Shown: one piece after another, positions 13,299-46,500 of the stretch
How positions within the stretch are numbered: position 1 is the stretch's first letter
Layout of the letters: every line of letters starts with the position of its first letter
Assembly (NCBI GenBank): GCA_044225175.1
Contig: JBGAJA010000002.1
Span: 146,917 to 210,916 of the forward strand
Direction of reading: 5' to 3'
Length of the DNA stretch: 64,000 nucleotides
Origin: Candidatus Omnitrophota bacterium
GTDB lineage: Bacteria > Omnitrophota > Gorgyraeia > Zapsychrales > Fredricksoniimonadaceae
Made by a program: the position numbers and the translations under genes
Notes under the pieces: model-generated
Seen by the model: the letters and a program-made list of their open reading frames with translations, nothing else
The model's database searches: none
Told to the model about the DNA's origin: nothing

Positions 13299-14633
13299 AT
13301 GACTCTAACAGACATCTGGCAAAAAACTCAAACGACAATCAAAGAACAAATAGGCTCAACTAGCTATGACACCTGGCTTTCAGGCCTAAAGGTTTTGGAT
13401 AAAAACACCAACACTCTTATCCTCCAAGCGCCAGATGAATTTTTTAAAAATTGGATCGTTGAACATTATGCTTCTGCTATTTCGCGCTGCTTAACTCAAG
13501 AAGCGGGCAGGGAAGTGGCCCTAGAGTTCGAAGTTAGCGCCCAGCTTTTAGAGCCTGTCCCCAAAAAGCTTCAGTCTTTAGAAAAAAATTTCAGTCATGA
13601 GCCTTCTAAAACTAATATTAATTTAAACGCACGTTTTCTTTTTGAGAATTTTGTTGTTGGTTCATCCAATCGTTTTGCTTTTGCAGCAGCTCAAGCGGTG
13701 GCCGAAGCTCCCGCTAAGATGTACAATCCATTTTTTATTTATGGTTCCGTAGGATTAGGGAAAACCCACTTGTTGCAGGCAATTACCCAAGAAATTCTTC
13801 GCAAACATCCTGGACTTAAAATTTGTTATATCTCCTCTGAACAATTTACCAATGAATTAATTAATGCCATTCGACACCGTTCTGCTGAAAATTTTCGCCT
13901 TAAATATAGAAACATTGATGTCTTGTTAATTGATGATATTCATTTTATCGCCGGTAAAGAAAGCACTCAGGAAGAATTTTTCCACACCTTTAATACTCTT
14001 CACGACCATCACAAACAAATTATTATTTGTTCTGACAGGCCTCCTAAAGAAATTGCTCATCTGGAAGAACGATTAGTTTCGCGTTTTTGTTGGGGACTCA
14101 TTACAGATATTCAGCCGCCAGACTATGAAACACGCGTAGCCATTTTACGCAAAAAACTGGAATTAGAATCCGTGAACGTCCCTGATGATGTGATTGATTT
14201 TATTGCAGCGGAAATTAAAACCAATATCCGCGAGTTAGAGGGCGCTTTATTAAGAGTAGTTGCTTATGCCTTGTTGGAAGATAAAACAATAAGTCTTTCT
14301 GTTGCTAAATCTGTCCTTAAGGATATGGTTAAAGAAACTGTTAAAACTATTTCTGTAGAAATGGTCCAAAAAGAAGTGGCAGAATTTTTTAATCTTTCTT
14401 TACCAGAGCTTAAAAATAAGAGTCGTCATAAAAATATTATTGTTCCAAGGCAAGTGGCTATGTATCTATCTAGGAAGCTTACCAATCATTCTTTGCCAGA
14501 AATTGGAGCTGCTTTTGGTGGTAAAGATCACACTACAATTTTACATGCAGTAAAAAAAGTTGAAGAAGTTCTTTTAAAAGACGAACAAATAAGGAAAATA
14601 GTAGAAACTTTACGTAATGCCTTGTTGGTATAA
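13299..14633 (+). CDS. dnaA: Chromosomal replication initiator DnaA
   Basis: AAA+ 'GxxGLGKTHL', sensor motifs, and the C-terminal DNA-binding domain 'VAMYLSRKLT...LPEIGxxFGGKDHTTILHA'. Confidence 0.95.
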   Translation: MTLTDIWQKTQTTIKEQIGSTSYDTWLSGLKVLDKNTNTLILQAPDEFFKNWIVEHYASAISRCLTQEAGREVALEFEVSAQLLEPVPKKLQSLEKNFSHEPSKTNINLNARFLFENFVVGSSNRFAFAAAQAVAEAPAKMYNPFFIYGSVGLGKTHLLQAITQEILRKHPGLKICYISSEQFTNELINAIRHRSAENFRLKYRNIDVLLIDDIHFIAGKESTQEEFFHTFNTLHDHHKQIIICSDRPPKEIAHLEERLVSRFCWGLITDIQPPDYETRVAILRKKLELESVNVPDDVIDFIAAEIKTNIRELEGALLRVVAYALLEDKTISLSVAKSVLKDMVKETVKTISVEMVQKEVAEFFNLSLPELKNKSRHKNIIVPRQVAMYLSRKLTNHSLPEIGAAFGGKDHTTILHAVKKVEEVLLKDEQIRKIVETLRNALLV

Positions 14634-41156: not shown

Positions 41157-42062
41157 ATGTTAACCATGGCCATGTTGTTAGTTTTTCTAGCTATTTTTGC
41201 GGCGATCTTAGCTTTCATTCCTTTTGATAGTCGTCCCACATTAAAGTTGGACATGACATTGACGCCAAGCCCCTTTGGACAAGAAATACAGACCAAAAAG
41301 AAAAGCCCTCTTTCCGGTCTAGTAAGTCTTTTAAGAAAGGCGGCTTTTTTTAATAAGCCTTTTACCAAGTCGGATTTAGGACAAAGAATATTCAGAGATT
41401 TGTCCTTAAGTCAGACACCCATATCGACGGAAGAATTCCTTTTGATAAAACAAATTTTGGTTGTCGTCCTTATTTTGATTTCTATCAAGATCAATCCAGA
41501 CCCCTCCTTCTTAATGTTTTCTGTTTTAATGGCGGTTGCAGGTGGGTATATTCTTCCCGAATTCTGGCTACGTATGCGAGTTAAAAAAATTAAAGAGTCC
41601 ATTTTGCGTGATTTGCCAGATACGGTTGATCTTTTAGGTCTTTGCGTGAACGCTGGTCTTGATTTTATGATGGCCCTTCGTTATGTGGTGGAAAAGTCAC
41701 AACCCTCAGTCATCATCGAAGAGCTTAGGATCATGATGCAGGAAATCAATGTAGGTAAGCCTCGCAGGGATGCTCTGCGGGATTTATCTAGGAAATATGA
41801 AATGCCGGATTTGGCGACCTTCTCTCGTACCTTGATCCAAGCAGATCGCATGGGTACCTCGGTGTCAGAGGCCCTTAATATTCTCTCCGAAGATATGCGC
41901 GAAACCCGCTATCGCAGAGGCGAAGCCATGGCGCTCAAAGCCCCTCTTAAAATGCTTATTCCCCTGTTATTGTGCATTTTCCCAGTTGTGGCCCTTTTAG
42001 TCGCCGGCCCCATCTTCCTAGACTTCATGCACAACAACCCTCTACAGAACTTAGCCAAATAA
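41157..42062 (+). CDS. tadC: Tad/Flp pilus inner-membrane platform protein TadC (T2SS-F family)
   Basis: 301 aa, a paralog of TadB, in the locus position expected for tadC. Confidence 0.75.
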   Translation: MLTMAMLLVFLAIFAAILAFIPFDSRPTLKLDMTLTPSPFGQEIQTKKKSPLSGLVSLLRKAAFFNKPFTKSDLGQRIFRDLSLSQTPISTEEFLLIKQILVVVLILISIKINPDPSFLMFSVLMAVAGGYILPEFWLRMRVKKIKESILRDLPDTVDLLGLCVNAGLDFMMALRYVVEKSQPSVIIEELRIMMQEINVGKPRRDALRDLSRKYEMPDLATFSRTLIQADRMGTSVSEALNILSEDMRETRYRRGEAMALKAPLKMLIPLLLCIFPVVALLVAGPIFLDFMHNNPLQNLAK

Positions 42063-42083
42063 AAAGGTGTCAGACACCTTTTT
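42061..42083. repeat. REP-like palindrome copy 1: AAAAAGGTGTCAGACACCTTTTT
   Basis: Exact 23-mer, one of four copies. Confidence 0.75.
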
Positions 42084-42192
42084 ATTGACTATTTTTAGAT
42101 GAATAATTATCATTTTGTCATCTGATTCTCCCCATCAGAAGCAATCCATACCCCAATTGCTAAGTAATTTCAAAAAATCAAAATTCCTATCC

Positions 42193-42215
42193 AAAAAGGT
42201 GTCAGACACCTTTTT
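42193..42215. repeat. REP-like palindrome copy 2
   Basis: Identical 23-mer, 37 nt upstream of the RAYT start. Confidence 0.75.
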
Positions 42216-42251
42216 GACATTATCTAACCTCCCCGTTCAAGAAAGGTCAAT

Positions 42252-42935
42252 ATGCCTCGAAAACCACGAATCATCATCCCAGGAGAAATGTTTCATGTAA
42301 CCCAAAGAGGAAATTATCAACAACCTGTCTTTGAAGATGATCAAGACAGGGTAGTTTATTTAAAACTTTTACAAAAATATAAACAACAGCATGCTCTTAA
42401 TCTTTTTGCCTATTGCTTAATGAGTAATCATGTTCATTTGATTGTAAAACCAGAAGATCATACTTCCTTAGCTAAAACAATGGCCCATACCCATCAGAAC
42501 TATGCTCTTTATTTTCATAAAAGAAGAAAACGTCAAGGTCATTTATGGCAGCAAAGGTATTATTCCTGTTTGCTATATGGTCAGCATATTTTACAGGCCA
42601 TACGATATGTGGAAAGAAATCCAGTAAGGGCCGGTATGGTCGCTCAACCTTGGGAGTACGTTTGGTCCAGCGTTAACGCGCATCTAGGTAAAGTATATAA
42701 AATAATTACGTTAGAAGATAGTTCAGCTTTAATAAAAGATTCGGAATGGAAAGATTTTATTAGCTCTCCAGAAGACCTGACTCAAAATGATCAGCTTAGG
42801 CAAAGAACTCTCAAAGGATCTGTTTTAGGTGCGAAAGAAGACATTCAAGCTTTAGAAGAACGCCTAGGTCGCAAAGTCATCTTTATCCCTAAAAAAGTAA
42901 AGAAGATGTCAAAAAGGTGTCAGACACCTTTTTGA
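42252..42935 (+). CDS. IS200/IS605-family Y1 (HUH) transposase, REP-associated tyrosine transposase (RAYT)-like
   Basis: HUH motif 'SNHVHLIV', 'GHLWQQRYYS' catalytic-Tyr region, and about 60 aa of N-terminal similarity to TnpA_IS200. The C-terminus is translated through a REP copy. Confidence 0.8.
   Translation: MPRKPRIIIPGEMFHVTQRGNYQQPVFEDDQDRVVYLKLLQKYKQQHALNLFAYCLMSNHVHLIVKPEDHTSLAKTMAHTHQNYALYFHKRRKRQGHLWQQRYYSCLLYGQHILQAIRYVERNPVRAGMVAQPWEYVWSSVNAHLGKVYKIITLEDSSALIKDSEWKDFISSPEDLTQNDQLRQRTLKGSVLGAKEDIQALEERLGRKVIFIPKKVKKMSKRCQTPF
42912..42934. repeat. REP-like palindrome copy 3 (overlaps the RAYT 3' end)
   Basis: Identical 23-mer. Confidence 0.75.
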
Positions 42936-42984
42936 TGGTCTTAGGCAGGTCTTATTTGGGTGTAAATGGGTTTTACAGCTATTT

Positions 42985-43022
42985 TTCCAGTCTGGAACAT
43001 ATTTGGTTCATCCAGACTGGAA
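42985..43022. repeat. Inverted repeat ttccagtctggaa ... tccagactggaa (12-bp arms, roughly 13-nt spacer)
   Basis: Seen directly; function unknown. Confidence 0.4.
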
Positions 43023-43109
43023 ATTAGCTAAAAAGGTTATTTACGGTTAAATAATGGCCATTTAAGAAGATTATATAATTGCAGGCTGGCTTAATTGTAA
43101 AAATAGATC

Positions 43110-43132
43110 AAAAAGGTGTCTGACACCTTTTT
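43110..43132. repeat. REP-like palindrome copy 4 (central A to T variant)
   Basis: AAAAAGGTGTCTGACACCTTTTT. Its flank 'gattactattttta' resembles the copy-1 flank 'attgactattttta'. Confidence 0.7.
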
Positions 43133-43460
43133 GATTACTATTTTTAAGAAAGCCTTTTCTTGGAATGGGTGGATAAGAGGGGTTTTTTGGTTTCAAAAGG
43201 GGGTTGATATAAATTTAGGACGAACCGAAAAAAGCTTTCTTAGAAGGCACACCCCATCCTTTAAAAATAGATATTCCATAAACTATTTGATTTTAATAGG
43301 TTATAACTTAGAAAAAATAATTAAAGTGGTGGATGAAAATTATTTTTATGACATTTTATATATAAAAACTGATTTCAATTTTATTTTCTAGATTAATTTA
43401 AGTAGAATCGTAAACCATTGGTACTAAAGAGGATAAAATTGAAATAATATTTTGGAAAAT

Positions 43461-43539: not shown

Positions 43540-46500
43540 ATGGATAAAAACGAAGAATTCGAAAATCCAATTTCCTCTAACGAGGGCATCAAGTCTGATG
43601 GATCAGAGTCTGTATCTGCAGATAATATAGATATAGGCCACTCATCAGAATCTTCTTATTTGAAATTTCCAGAAAACCTTTCCCCCGTCGCTGCTAGTAC
43701 GAACCCCGAAGAAAGTTTTAATTCTATCGACGACAAAGACTTTAGAAATGGATCCGCCTTTGGCGGAGACCCAAGTCTCATTCAAATTCCACGCGCTGAT
43801 CAAAATCCATTTGTAAGTAACTTTAAACAATGGATCAAAGCGGTTGCTATTTTTGTATTAATAGTATTTATACCTGATCAAATAAGCTGGGCTTTTGGGT
43901 ATAATCCACAAGTCCTTTATAAAGATTTGCCTATTACAAGCGCCCCTATGTCATCGTCGGTGATGAATATGGCGGCCAATGACGCCGGCAAGATTTTACC
44001 TCACCAACAAATTTCCGGTTCCGTTGAATATTTGCTTAACCAAATCAAAGACAAAGAAAATCTTCGTGTGCAGTTGAACGTAGAGAATCCTAAAGATGCA
44101 AACAAATCCGCAGCTCATCAACTTGAAGTGGACACAAAGATTAAATTCGACAAACAAACCATTCAAGAAATTACAAAATGGTTGTCTCAAGAGAATCTAA
44201 ACATTCTTAATTGCGGTGTTTATTCCTTGCAAAAATTGCTTGAGCACAGAGGCATCAAACGCTCGCTGGAAGAAATTGCTGTTTTAACAATCGCCACCGA
44301 TTTAATGACCAACATTATTAAAATCGGTGAACCAAAACTCAAGACCACATTATTCTCAATGGCTAAAGTTGGAGATGCCTTAGGTTTAAATTACAAAGCC
44401 ATCAAGCTAGAGGCAAAAGACGAATTAACATTACCCACGCCTTTCATTGCCTCCATCAAAGGCGAACACTTTGTGACTGTCAAAAAAGTGACAGACACAC
44501 AAGTTTTTGTAGAGGACTTAGGCCAATCCAAAACATTAGATAGAAGAATTTTTGAAGACAGCCTGACTGGTTTTGCTTATGCCAATGTTGGCGAACATTT
44601 TAAATCTGAACTTTACGAAGTAGTCCCTGAAGCTTTGCAAGCATTTGTCTGGGGAGATAAATGGCGTGACCGCACCGGAGACTTGCCTGGATTGACCAAC
44701 TGGAACCAAGTCATTATTACTGGGGTCATTCAAGTGGCCATGTGCTTTATTCCCTTAGCTGGAGAATATGTGGGTGCATCGGCCGGAATCACAGCCACAA
44801 CAACCATGGAAGTCACCAATAGCGCAGGTGAATTAATTGCAGCCGGTGCTATCGCCATGGCTGCCAGCCAATTAGCCGGAAACATTGCAACAGTTTGTAC
44901 GATGAAAGGTGCCTGTAATGCCACGACGGGATTCTTATTAAGTACGGCGCTTTCTGTTGGTTTGACCATGGGAGCAAGCTCTGCTGCAGGTATAGCTCAC
45001 GGAGGATTTGCCAATAATATTTTAGGAAAAGAAGCTAATCCAGTTTCAAAGTTTGCCGTAGATTTTGCTTTTAATTTTTCTATGGGACTTGTCGCTGGTT
45101 ATGCCAGCCTTGAAGCAACCCGAGCTGTTCAAGAAGCCATTTGTAAAGATTCGAAAAAATGCTCAGGGACTCAAGCCATTCTCTCCCAAGCACTCGGCAC
45201 TATTGCTGGATCAGTTGCTTCCATTGCAGCAACCACAGTCACTGCCTATGGGCTATCTCAAATGCCTGGCAAATTTGGTGAAGCCGTTTCAGACACTTAT
45301 GGATTCAGAGAAAAGAATGCTGCCAAGGCCGCTCGCGAAAATGTGGTGAATAATCAACCTGAAATTAAGCAGAGTGGGGATGCTATCATTAAAGCAGCTA
45401 CCATAGATAATCTACCCGCTGACCAAGTCCTGCAAATAGATCCTCATTTTACAGACACACCTCAAAACAGGGCGATTGTTCAAGACTTGCAAAGTCCAAC
45501 TCCTGGAACTGTTAATGAAGCCATAGGTAAAGTCAGAGAAAGCCTTACTCAAGACTATAGAAATGAAGGTGTTGGCACATGGGCAGCGGATGATGCCATT
45601 AAAAATAATCCTGATTTGGCCCCCCAACGCGCAGAAATGATTAGAGACCTGAAATCCGGTGTGGTTTTAGGAAGTGATGGAAACTATAGTTTTAATAATC
45701 CAACTTTAGAACCAGCTGTTCTTCATGCCATGGACAATGCCAATGCCTGGCACAATACTTCTTTTGGCCAAGTGATGTCCGACATGGCCATCAGCCAATT
45801 GCCTGCGATCGCCGGACAGTTAACAGGAATGATTGCCCAAATCGTCGCCTACAAAGCAGGAGGCGTTGATCCTGATAGTGGAATGTCCCAAGGATTAAAT
45901 CAATTCTTTAGTTCAGCAGGAAGCTTGGCGGCAGGTTACGGCATGCAGCAATCAGGCATGGTCCCAAGAAGCACATCCGAAAATATTTCAGCAGCGATCA
46001 AAACAGGTCTTATCCGATCTGCCTTTGCCTTAGGTTTAGGAATTGTGGAAGATAAGATTATTGAGAAACCAGCCAAAGGGTCTTCCGCCCGCGCTCAATG
46101 GCGTTATGAAGAAAAATTGGCCCAGCTTCGCGCTTTCAATTTTGTGGCCTCCAGCTTTTTAACAGGGGCCATCATCGCAACCACCGATGAACAAAATACC
46201 GGTATCGAAGGCGTATCCGTAGACTCTATGAAGAACGCCATTGCCCAGCGTGCCCGAGCCAAAGCCTCTCAAGAAGCTGAAAACAATCCCTACATGATTA
46301 ATTATGCAACCCAAGAAACAGATACTCCACAAATGGATACGTCTAAGGGCCCATTATATGGAAAGATGATGGAAGATTTTAAAACTAAAGCAGGAGAAGA
46401 TGCTTACCAAGCAACCATGGACAGTATGAATGTTTCCTGGGGACGTCGAGCTTTGTTTTCAAGCCTTCATATAATGGGCAACACGGACAACAGCTTTGTG

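Follow-up and report, generated by a model that had tools for sequence, protein, structure and literature searches.

The biochemistry of the Escherichia coli transposase TnpA_REP and of the transposases of the insertion sequences (IS) IS608 and ISDra2 is established, and the structures 4ER8, 2VJV and 2XM3 are available. The largest group of the REP (repetitive extragenic palindrome)-associated tyrosine transposases (RAYTs), variously called TIRYTs, subclass 2.1 or Group 1, is known as a class and little studied; we found no experimental work on TIRYTs in the literature searched. Here we describe a RAYT-type gene with its flanking palindromes in a 64,000-nt stretch of DNA from a Candidatus Omnitrophota bacterium (assembly GCA_044225175.1, contig JBGAJA010000002.1, positions 146,917 to 210,916 of the forward strand). 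This whole stretch is referred to as the window, and its own numbering is used throughout. Omnitrophota is a phylum not previously surveyed for TIRYT/Group 1 RAYTs.

In Table 1 of Quentin et al. (2018; PMC6006769), subclass 2.1 carries NHVH or NH[YF]H, W[EQ], a YIELNP-like motif and an SS tail motif, and its members have a conserved C-terminal extension and a median length of 238 aa. In the same work Y...NP is the motif of class 2 and Y...Q that of class 1, subclass 2.1 corresponds to Group 1 of Bertels et al. and is equated with the TIRYTs of PMC3733652, and no REP-like structures are reported for it. The accessible passages of PMC3733652 (Di Nocera et al. 2013) describe TIRYT genes flanked by inverted repeats with GGGGWSAS, not by GTAG REPs; some of these repeats are self-complementary, some lie over the gene 3′ end, and some form moderately abundant families. 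According to Bertels et al. (2017; PMC5581495), Group 1 is the most IS-like of the RAYT groups, and RAYTs in general behave like housekeeping genes.

The window contains a Y1 transposase gene of RAYT/TIRYT type, an intact open reading frame (ORF) of 227 aa at 42252-42935 on the forward strand. It is bracketed by four hairpin repeats in a conserved layout, with forward copies upstream, a forward copy over the 3′ end and an inverted copy downstream. We put the probability at about 0.8 that this is the home locus of a RAYT-family HUH/Y1 single-stranded DNA (ssDNA) endonuclease/transposase of the TIRYT/subclass 2.1/Group 1 kind, together with its cognate DNA sites. The layout recurs at homologous genes in Omnitrophota and in other phyla, and with it a homologous core of the form A-tract / G(T/G)G / N-CAG-N / C(A/C)C / T-tract.

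The protein matched the Pfam Y1_Tnp model (2e-15, 57.4 bits against a cut-off of 23) and marginally passed the NCBIfam model NF047646, REP_Tyr_transpos (80.6 bits against 80). In an alignment of the window protein with 24 homologues (25 sequences), the invariant residues were H60 and H62 (the HUH motif, in SNHVH), W99-Q100, Y119 (in RYVERNPVRA) and W138-S139-S140. In a profile search of the PDB, the best solved relative was E. coli TnpA_REP (4ER8, a complex with a REP hairpin); a single-sequence search of the PDB did not find 4ER8, so that a profile was needed. H60/H62, W99/Q100 and Y119 aligned with H59/H61, W94/Q95 and Y115 (in YIYINP) of 4ER8. The AF2 model had a pLDDT of 89.5 and a pTM of 0.86, and its top Foldseek match was 4er8_A (E = 1.5e-8, TM = 0.71 normalised to the target), with IS608, ISDra2 and IS200 chains ranking lower. 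Judged by its residues, the gene is intact and catalytically complete. A sequence-only reading of this DNA had described an IS200-type Y1/RAYT gene flanked by four copies of a perfect palindrome as a REPtron-like element. The Y1 assignment and the HUH motif (within HVHLIV) held, the catalytic tyrosine, whose lack on alignment that reading had named as grounds for refutation, is present, and hidden Markov models (HMMs), catalytic-residue alignment, fold and comparative loci support a RAYT-type gene with cognate palindromes. Against the IS200 label stand the Y...NP motif and a score of 20.8 bits against a cut-off of 55 for NCBIfam NF033573, transpos_IS200. GHLWQQRYY, which it had named as a second motif, is present as the conserved W-Q motif and does not contain the catalytic tyrosine.

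The repeat is a 23-mer, AAAAAGGTGTC(A/T)GACACCTTTTT. Copies 1 and 2 lie at 42061-42083 and 42193-42215, the latter 36 nt 5′ of the ORF start, and copy 3 at 42911-42933, all three on the forward strand; copy 4 has its core at 43110-43132 on the reverse strand and is embedded in a longer imperfect palindrome, TAAAAATAGATC-[23-mer]-GATTACTATTTTTA, spanning 43088-43154. The four copies are exact, as the sequence-only reading had stated, although it had placed the third at 42912. Its claims that the remaining 62 kb hold no further copy and that the transposase ORF contains copy 3 at its 3′ end were also borne out: no other match with three or fewer mismatches occurs in the window, and copy 3 falls within the last 25 nt of the ORF, before the stop TGA, where it codes for the terminal residues KRCQTPF. 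None was found in 100 dinucleotide-preserving shuffles (chance expectation 0 copies), and a looser search of the 64 kb with a 15-nt core and up to three mismatches yielded one extra, chance-level match. The central base is the only asymmetric position of the 23-mer and reads A, A, A and T in copies 1 to 4, so that copy 4 is inverted relative to the others.

The flanks extend these relationships. Copies 3 and 4 with their flanks are complementary over 28 nt (100%), copy 2 with its right flank and copy 3 with its left flank form a 34-nt inverted repeat (91%), and copies 1 and 4 form a 23-nt inverted repeat (100%). Copy 1 with its flanks is a 29-nt perfect palindrome (AAT...ATT) and overlaps the tadC stop codon TAA (42060-42062). 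The hairpin foot consists of an A5/T5 tract; the bases next to it are TC...GA in copies 3 and 4, and C...GA in copy 2. The sequence-only reading had noted extended flanks common to the outermost copies and taken them to suggest the limits of an inserted unit. The likeness is real (copies 1 and 4 with their right flanks are alike over 37 nt, at 89% identity), but the common flanks are on the same side of each hairpin, as direct repeats, one inside the unit and one outside, and are not symmetrical insertion limits. They look like a duplicated module of hairpin plus a −35-like TTGACT. A target-site duplication was considered for these flanks and rejected, as they are 13-14 nt long, imperfect and both 3′ of the hairpins.

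Folded as ssDNA, each copy reached −10 to −11 kcal/mol (z about −6), with −11.1 kcal/mol (z −5.8) for copy 1 and −19.3 kcal/mol (z −8.6) for the extended copy 4. As RNA the copies folded at −14 to −22 kcal/mol, and the stem has only 5-6 G/C-containing pairs. The arrangement of A-tract, GC stem and T-tract fits the pattern of a bidirectional terminator, and a terminator-pattern scan flagged copy 1. For copy 1, which the earlier reading took to double as a terminator-like hairpin after tadC, and for copies 3 and 4, terminator-like behaviour is a possibility raised by this pattern match only. Abutting copy 1 is a sigma-70-like match, TTGACT-17-TATCAT (42085-42113, forward strand), whose −35 lies within the flank common with copy 4. 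It agrees with the consensus at 10/12 positions, the count of such matches in the region is not above that in shuffles, and TTGAC(A/T) also directly follows the upstream hairpin at two Planctomycetota loci (L025 and L075); its identification as a possible transposase promoter is suggestive only. Literature searches with the repeat sequences as strings returned nothing relevant, and no Rfam family reached threshold in a scan that gave sub-threshold chance matches such as miRNA models.

Among known classes the TIRtron/TIRYT is the best-fitting one for this element by motif content, better than the GTAG-REP REPtron, and REPtron-like is appropriate in a loose sense only. SNHVH, LWQ, YVERNP, WSS, a conserved C-terminal region of ~85 aa and a length of 227 aa match the subclass 2.1 signature. 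The GT[AG]G tetranucleotide is absent from the 5′ foot of the hairpin in the window copies. The residues that read GTAG in the E. coli enzyme, E100, H101 and R104, correspond to S105, C106 and Y109, which fits a repeat without GTAG. Half of the palindrome, GGTGTCAG, agrees with GGGGWSAS, as given in the accessible passages of PMC3733652, at 7/8 positions, and the paired base is changed too (GACACC). Homologues with 34-42% identity on proteobacterial plasmids match that motif at 8/8 positions (GGGGTCAG or GGGGACAG) in flanking inverted repeats. A Rhodospirillum rubrum plasmid has AAAAGGGGTCAGACCCCTT (loop A) upstream of its gene and an inverted copy (loop T) just past the stop; an Iodobacter plasmid has a 21-nt exact inverted repeat, AATAACTGGGGTCAGAGCAAA; a Skermanella plasmid has three copies of ATGGGGTCAGAG upstream; and a Pseudomonas aeruginosa plasmid has a 30-nt repeat beginning AAAGGGGACAG that overlaps the gene 3′ end. 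The window repeat differs from that of R. rubrum by a compensated change (GGTGTC/GACACC versus GGGGTC/GACCCC). Because the plasmid homologues carry like repeats and the difference is compensated, the element belongs with the TIRtrons.

At the loci of four close Omnitrophota homologues (L001, L125, L128 and L129) the same anatomy was found with a sister core, GTGACAGGCAC. Forward copies lie upstream, the leftmost over the stop codon of the upstream gene. A forward copy lies over the ORF 3′ end in L001 and L128, a remnant only in L125 and none in L129. Inverted copies, GTGCCTGTCAC, follow the gene in L001, L128 and L129, and that of L125 belongs to a separate doublet past the next gene. At L139, a tadC-linked locus, the core is GTGCCAGGCAC, part of a perfect palindrome of 38 nt found to either side of the gene; counting this locus, a copy over the ORF 3′ end is seen at L001, L128, L108, L075 and L139. 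The L139 contig starts inside that palindrome (1-39), which also follows the gene (737-777), and such an assembly break is a hint of further copies of the palindrome in that genome. In the core alignment GTG-TCAGA-CAC of the window stands against GTG-ACAGG-CAC and GTG-CCAGG-CAC. L001 and L125 also carry further inverted doublets of the sister repeat away from the gene, from which we infer that the enzyme family disperses repeats as REPIN-like units. One of these, GTGACAGGCAC ... GTGCCTGTCAC at L001:1290-1345, lies in frame within valS of a metagenomic contig, where it adds ~20 residues (…ISDRHYFSEVSSGEKIVPVT…) and leaves the reading frame unbroken. L001 has three repeat clusters in 10.7 kb, compared with zero density outside the gene flanks in the window. 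The sequence-only reading had treated hundreds of dispersed copies unlinked to Y1 genes as grounds for refutation; this was mis-specified, because a REP/RAYT system predicts dispersed copies, which are therefore not evidence against it.

When one genome per species (596 Gb) was scanned with the 19-nt core AAAGGTGTCNGACACCTTT (18 fixed bases), at least 118 stretches with at least 134 copies were found, compared with ~10 expected by chance according to an arithmetic estimate. Pirellulaceae, Phycisphaerae, Solirubrobacteraceae, Syntrophomonadaceae and Prevotellaceae/Bacteroidales, with others, were among the matches listed. The core is unchanged in hosts with 34-77% G+C from six or more phyla, whereas identity among the enzymes beside it is down to ~30%, and several genomes carry the identical core on at least three to at least six separate contigs each. 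Clear homologues of the window protein (28-33% identity) were present in 5 of the at least 118 8-kb blocks listed, with the palindrome within ~100 nt of the Y1 gene ends in all five. Homologues flanked by the very same GGTGTCNGACACC came from Bacteroidales, Pirellulaceae, a Planctomycetota single-amplified genome, Syntrophomonadaceae and Phycisphaerae. The Phycisphaerae locus (L108) has the layout of the window, with two copies upstream, one over the 3′ end and one inverted downstream; the three copies whose loops were read have A, A and T, the second upstream copy not being among them. L025 and L075 share one imperfect variant of the 3′ repeat, AAAGGTACCTGACACCTTT, with GGTACC instead of GGTGTC, which suggests a systematic difference between left and right ends in that lineage.

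The stem extends past the 19-mer in lineage-specific sequence by a mean of 2.9 bp, compared with 0.9 bp when flanks were re-paired. Among 23 repeat copies from 11 loci, 8/12 stem pairs had changed on both sides, and 79.7% of cells were paired, compared with 67.7% in shuffles and 33-53% with the partner slid. The invariant positions were G13, G15, C17-A18-G19, C21 and C23. This pattern speaks for conservation of a hairpin or palindrome whose core is sequence-specific. An open-frame comparison for the intergenic dispersed copies (median 705 versus 1401 nt) is weak, long stop-free frames being common at high GC, and was not relied on.

The C-terminus differs from that of the family, in which GRPKK, within a P-x-GRPKK motif that resembles an AT-hook, is near-invariant; in the window protein GRPKK is replaced by PKKVKKMSKRCQTPF and GRP is lost. 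At L075:3630-3670 PKKG is encoded by the bases that make up the A-tract of the 3′ repeat and the start of its stem (GGC CGC CCC AAA AAA GGT ACC TGA). The enzyme's own 3′ binding site may, through its A-tract, supply the codons for the AT-hook-like GRPKK. If this is true, evolution of the protein and of its site would be coupled. Many homologues have short C-terminal tails that look hairpin-encoded, such as SDRH, GVCP, VTGT and RCQTPF. More broadly, hairpins of the form A-tract / G(T/G)G / N-CAG-N / C(A/C)C / T-tract could be the general cognate element of Group 1/subclass 2.1 RAYTs, spreading in Omnitrophota as REPIN-like doublets and with GRPKK possibly site-encoded, a tentative generalization that we hold at somewhat under even odds.

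By analogy with E. coli TnpA_REP and with IS608/ISDra2 TnpA, the protein would bind repeats extruded as hairpins on ssDNA, for example on the lagging-strand template. The enzyme would read the G(T/G)G...CAG core and would cleave and rejoin nearby through a 5′-phosphotyrosine at Y119, with H60 and H62 holding the metal for cleavage. An AT-hook-like GRPKK tail would plausibly grip the A/T tract at the base of the stem, although this tail is degenerate in the window protein. Over evolutionary time the repeats may have been copied or moved, as the inverted doublets in sister genomes may have been, and the whole cassette would have moved rarely; within the window the repeats are confined to the gene flanks. 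The hairpins could also serve as terminator-like structures in both directions, setting the Tad operon, the transposase gene and the giant gene apart from one another.

Several points weigh against the assignment to a RAYT home locus with cognate sites. The placement in subclass 2.1 comes from motifs and length, and PMC6006769 scored that subclass as lacking REP-like structures. The NCBIfam RAYT score is just at its cut-off, and with the loss of GRPKK the window protein may be functionally altered. A symmetric dimer on a duplex palindrome would leave the same covariation as a hairpin does. Binding, strand choice and cleavage sites are extrapolated from enzymes outside TIRYT/Group 1. No repeat copy lies outside the gene flanks in 62 kb, and a metagenome scan with a lineage-specific 26-mer gave one match, on an unrelated high-GC contig, with no dispersed copies attributable to the lineage; repeat mobilisation in this genome is thus hypothetical.

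The cassette occupies a variable slot. Upstream of it is tadC (41157-42062, forward strand), the last gene of the Tad pilus operon, whose T2SSF-family product has TadC/type II secretion F homologues (PF00482) named Candidatus Omnitrophica/Omnitrophota. Downstream is a giant gene on the forward strand, with its start ATG at 43540, which is open at the window end (64000) with at least 6,820 aa and is context, not part of the element. The segment 97-18603 holds thrS, yidC, dnaA (13299-14633) and gyrB, which marks the region as a part of the chromosome near the origin; the direction of reading is away from dnaA for the Tad operon, the transposase gene and the giant gene alike. An extra hairpin unrelated to the repeat (42984-43023, strand not assigned) lies between copies 3 and 4, with a 13-bp perfect stem and a 14-nt loop (−16.3 kcal/mol as ssDNA, z −9.5); it has no T run after the stem, matches no Rfam family at threshold and is not present at the sister loci. 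A 2026 preprint on Omnitrophota giant proteins has neither 'IS200' nor 'palindrom' in its text, and its accessible passages make no mention of the element.

We compared the slot among relatives whose TadC is 69-76% identical to that of the window, a comparison that the sequence-only reading had proposed for relatives lacking the insertion. With the window included, a cassette after tadC is present in three lineages and absent in three. A Y1 gene directly follows tadC in two relatives (the contigs of P0123 and P0131). On the P0124 contig, which has no RAYT there, hipBA comes 32 nt past tadC and a giant gene comes next; at L121 five other genes come between tadC and the giant gene, and at L123 tadC is followed by other genes, neither having a Y1 gene after tadC. 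Giant genes occupy the same relative position in relatives, with a 17,991-aa gene in the corresponding place at L121. The slot thus contains, depending on the relative, a RAYT, a RAYT with hipBA, hipBA alone or five glycosylation/methyltransferase-type genes. Contigs of the P0131 and P0124 types differ by ~0.73 kb, which corresponds to the palindrome-RAYT-palindrome of L139, indicating that the cassette is a discrete presence/absence unit. Type II toxin-antitoxin genes (hipBA, Doc with its antitoxin, MazEF and HipA) lie directly beside RAYT/TIRYT genes at four unrelated loci (L139, L132, L135 and L136), which may reflect common residence in variable regions or a real linkage.

The descent of the cassette bears on the alternative that survives best, a domesticated, immobile RAYT kept for a host function, with the hairpins as local regulatory or terminator sites (autoregulation, or insulation of the Tad operon from the giant gene) and nothing mobilised. 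We consider this unlikely, though it accounts for much: there is a single gene with no repeat copies elsewhere in the 64 kb, RAYTs are housekeeping-like in general (PMC5581495), a promoter-like site abuts copy 1 as at L025 and L075, the hairpins fit a terminator pattern, and the AT-hook-like tail has been lost. The tadC-linked position also recurs in two other lineages, with proteins 57-61% identical to that of the window. However, the three tadC-linked proteins are only 57-72% identical to one another, whereas the tadC-linked L139 protein (P0005) is 76-77% identical to proteins at the unrelated loci L001 and L125, and the same RAYT clade occurs in at least four other gene contexts. This closer likeness of the L139 protein to proteins elsewhere makes movement between loci in the course of evolution more probable than vertical descent alone. 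In addition, the dispersed inverted doublets in sister genomes, including the in-frame one in valS, mean that the family does spread repeats, and the four identical copies suggest recent copying or homogenisation.

Further removed from the RAYT home locus is an autonomous IS200/IS605-type IS, with tnpA only, recently inserted between tadC and the giant gene and having copies 2 and 3 as subterminal end hairpins on the same strand. The Pfam Y1_Tnp match would suit it, as would the ~0.73-kb cassette that is present or absent between tadC and hipA in relatives and the standing of Group 1 as the most IS-like RAYT group (PMC5581495); copies 2 and 3, alike in orientation, enclose the ORF together with the 34-nt extended inverted flank, an arrangement that resembles IS200-like ends. 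Yet the protein fails the IS200 model (20.8 against 55), and the tyrosine motif is Y...NP of class 2 instead of Y...Q of class 1 (PMC6006769). No tnpB and no second copy were found in the 64-kb window, and no other adjoining ORF from tadC up to the giant gene exceeds 91 aa. The extra copies on the outside (1 and 4) and the inverted downstream copy are not IS200 features either. A search of 5.8 billion proteins gave ~7,900 homologues. The nearest RAYT homologues were 52-62% identical, the very nearest no more than 59-62%, and a single contig is on record for the exact protein; for these reasons there is no sign of recent spread. A recent IS insertion is therefore quite improbable.

That the palindromes are generic intrinsic terminators or operators unrelated to the Y1 protein and coincidentally placed is hardly credible, despite the bidirectional terminator pattern, the RNA folding energies and the position of copy 1 directly 3′ of tadC, since 1.1 kb holds four identical copies and the other operon ends in the 64 kb hold none, one copy is inside an ORF, the stem has so few G/C-containing pairs, and the core lies near Y1 gene ends in 5 of the at least 118 blocks from other phyla, far above chance for a gene with about one copy per genome.

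For annotation, the 1.1 kb that separate the Tad pilus operon from the giant gene are best described as a RAYT/TIRYT cassette in a variable slot. The most interesting by-product of the analysis is the deep cross-phylum conservation of the repeat core in a subclass reported as REP-less, which merits a dedicated survey. The short perfect palindrome, the loop base as an orientation marker and the compact, well-modelled 227-aa enzyme would make a convenient system for biochemistry, although the finding has no bearing on any long-standing open question.

One known system for comparison is the IS200/IS605 family (IS608 and ISDra2; subclass 1.1). Both have the catalytic fold and DNA hairpins as recognition elements, and a single-strand mechanism is the likely one; the window protein differs in failing the IS200 HMM, in having Y...NP and not Y...Q, in the lack of tnpB and of a multicopy signature, and in being ~75 aa longer. 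With the Pseudomonas REPIN-RAYT system (Bertels and Rainey 2011; Groups 2/3), the sister Omnitrophota loci L001 and L125 have in common the inverted doublets away from the gene, and the copy at the gene 3′ end with the inverted copy downstream is a doublet of the same type. The RAYT group and the repeat sequence are different, and the only doublet in the window, copies 3 and 4, has an unusually long spacer of 176 nt. The E. coli REPtron, with TnpA_REP (RayT/YafM, 4ER8; subclass 2.2/Group 2) and its REP/BIME repeats, resembles the locus in the HUH/Y1 fold, the H-u-H, W-Q and Y...NP motifs, and a gene flanked by hairpin repeats in both orientations. In contrast to it, the window protein is only ~16% identical and has an extra C-terminal helical domain of ~85 aa, and its repeats lack GT[AG]G and are not dispersed at high copy number within the window.

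The closest likeness is to the TIRYT/subclass 2.1/Group 1 systems, in which NHVH, WQ, Y-x-E-x-NP and a W-SS tail are found in proteins of ~230 aa. Flanking inverted repeats instead of GTAG REPs, the GGGGWSAS motif that GGTGTCAG resembles, self-complementarity of some repeats, overlap of others with the gene 3′ end, and low to moderate copy numbers elsewhere are likewise features of TIRYTs in the accessible passages of PMC3733652. The plasmid members from R. rubrum, Iodobacter, Skermanella and P. aeruginosa have repeats at the same positions as the window. Unlike subclass 2.1 as described in PMC6006769, the window and sister genomes have clear hairpins, and the sister genomes have REPIN-like doublets. 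The window element is further set apart from described TIRYTs by a motif one base off with a compensating change on the other arm, a degenerate GRPKK, a repeat that is a perfect 23-nt palindrome in four copies, and a host among the Omnitrophota.

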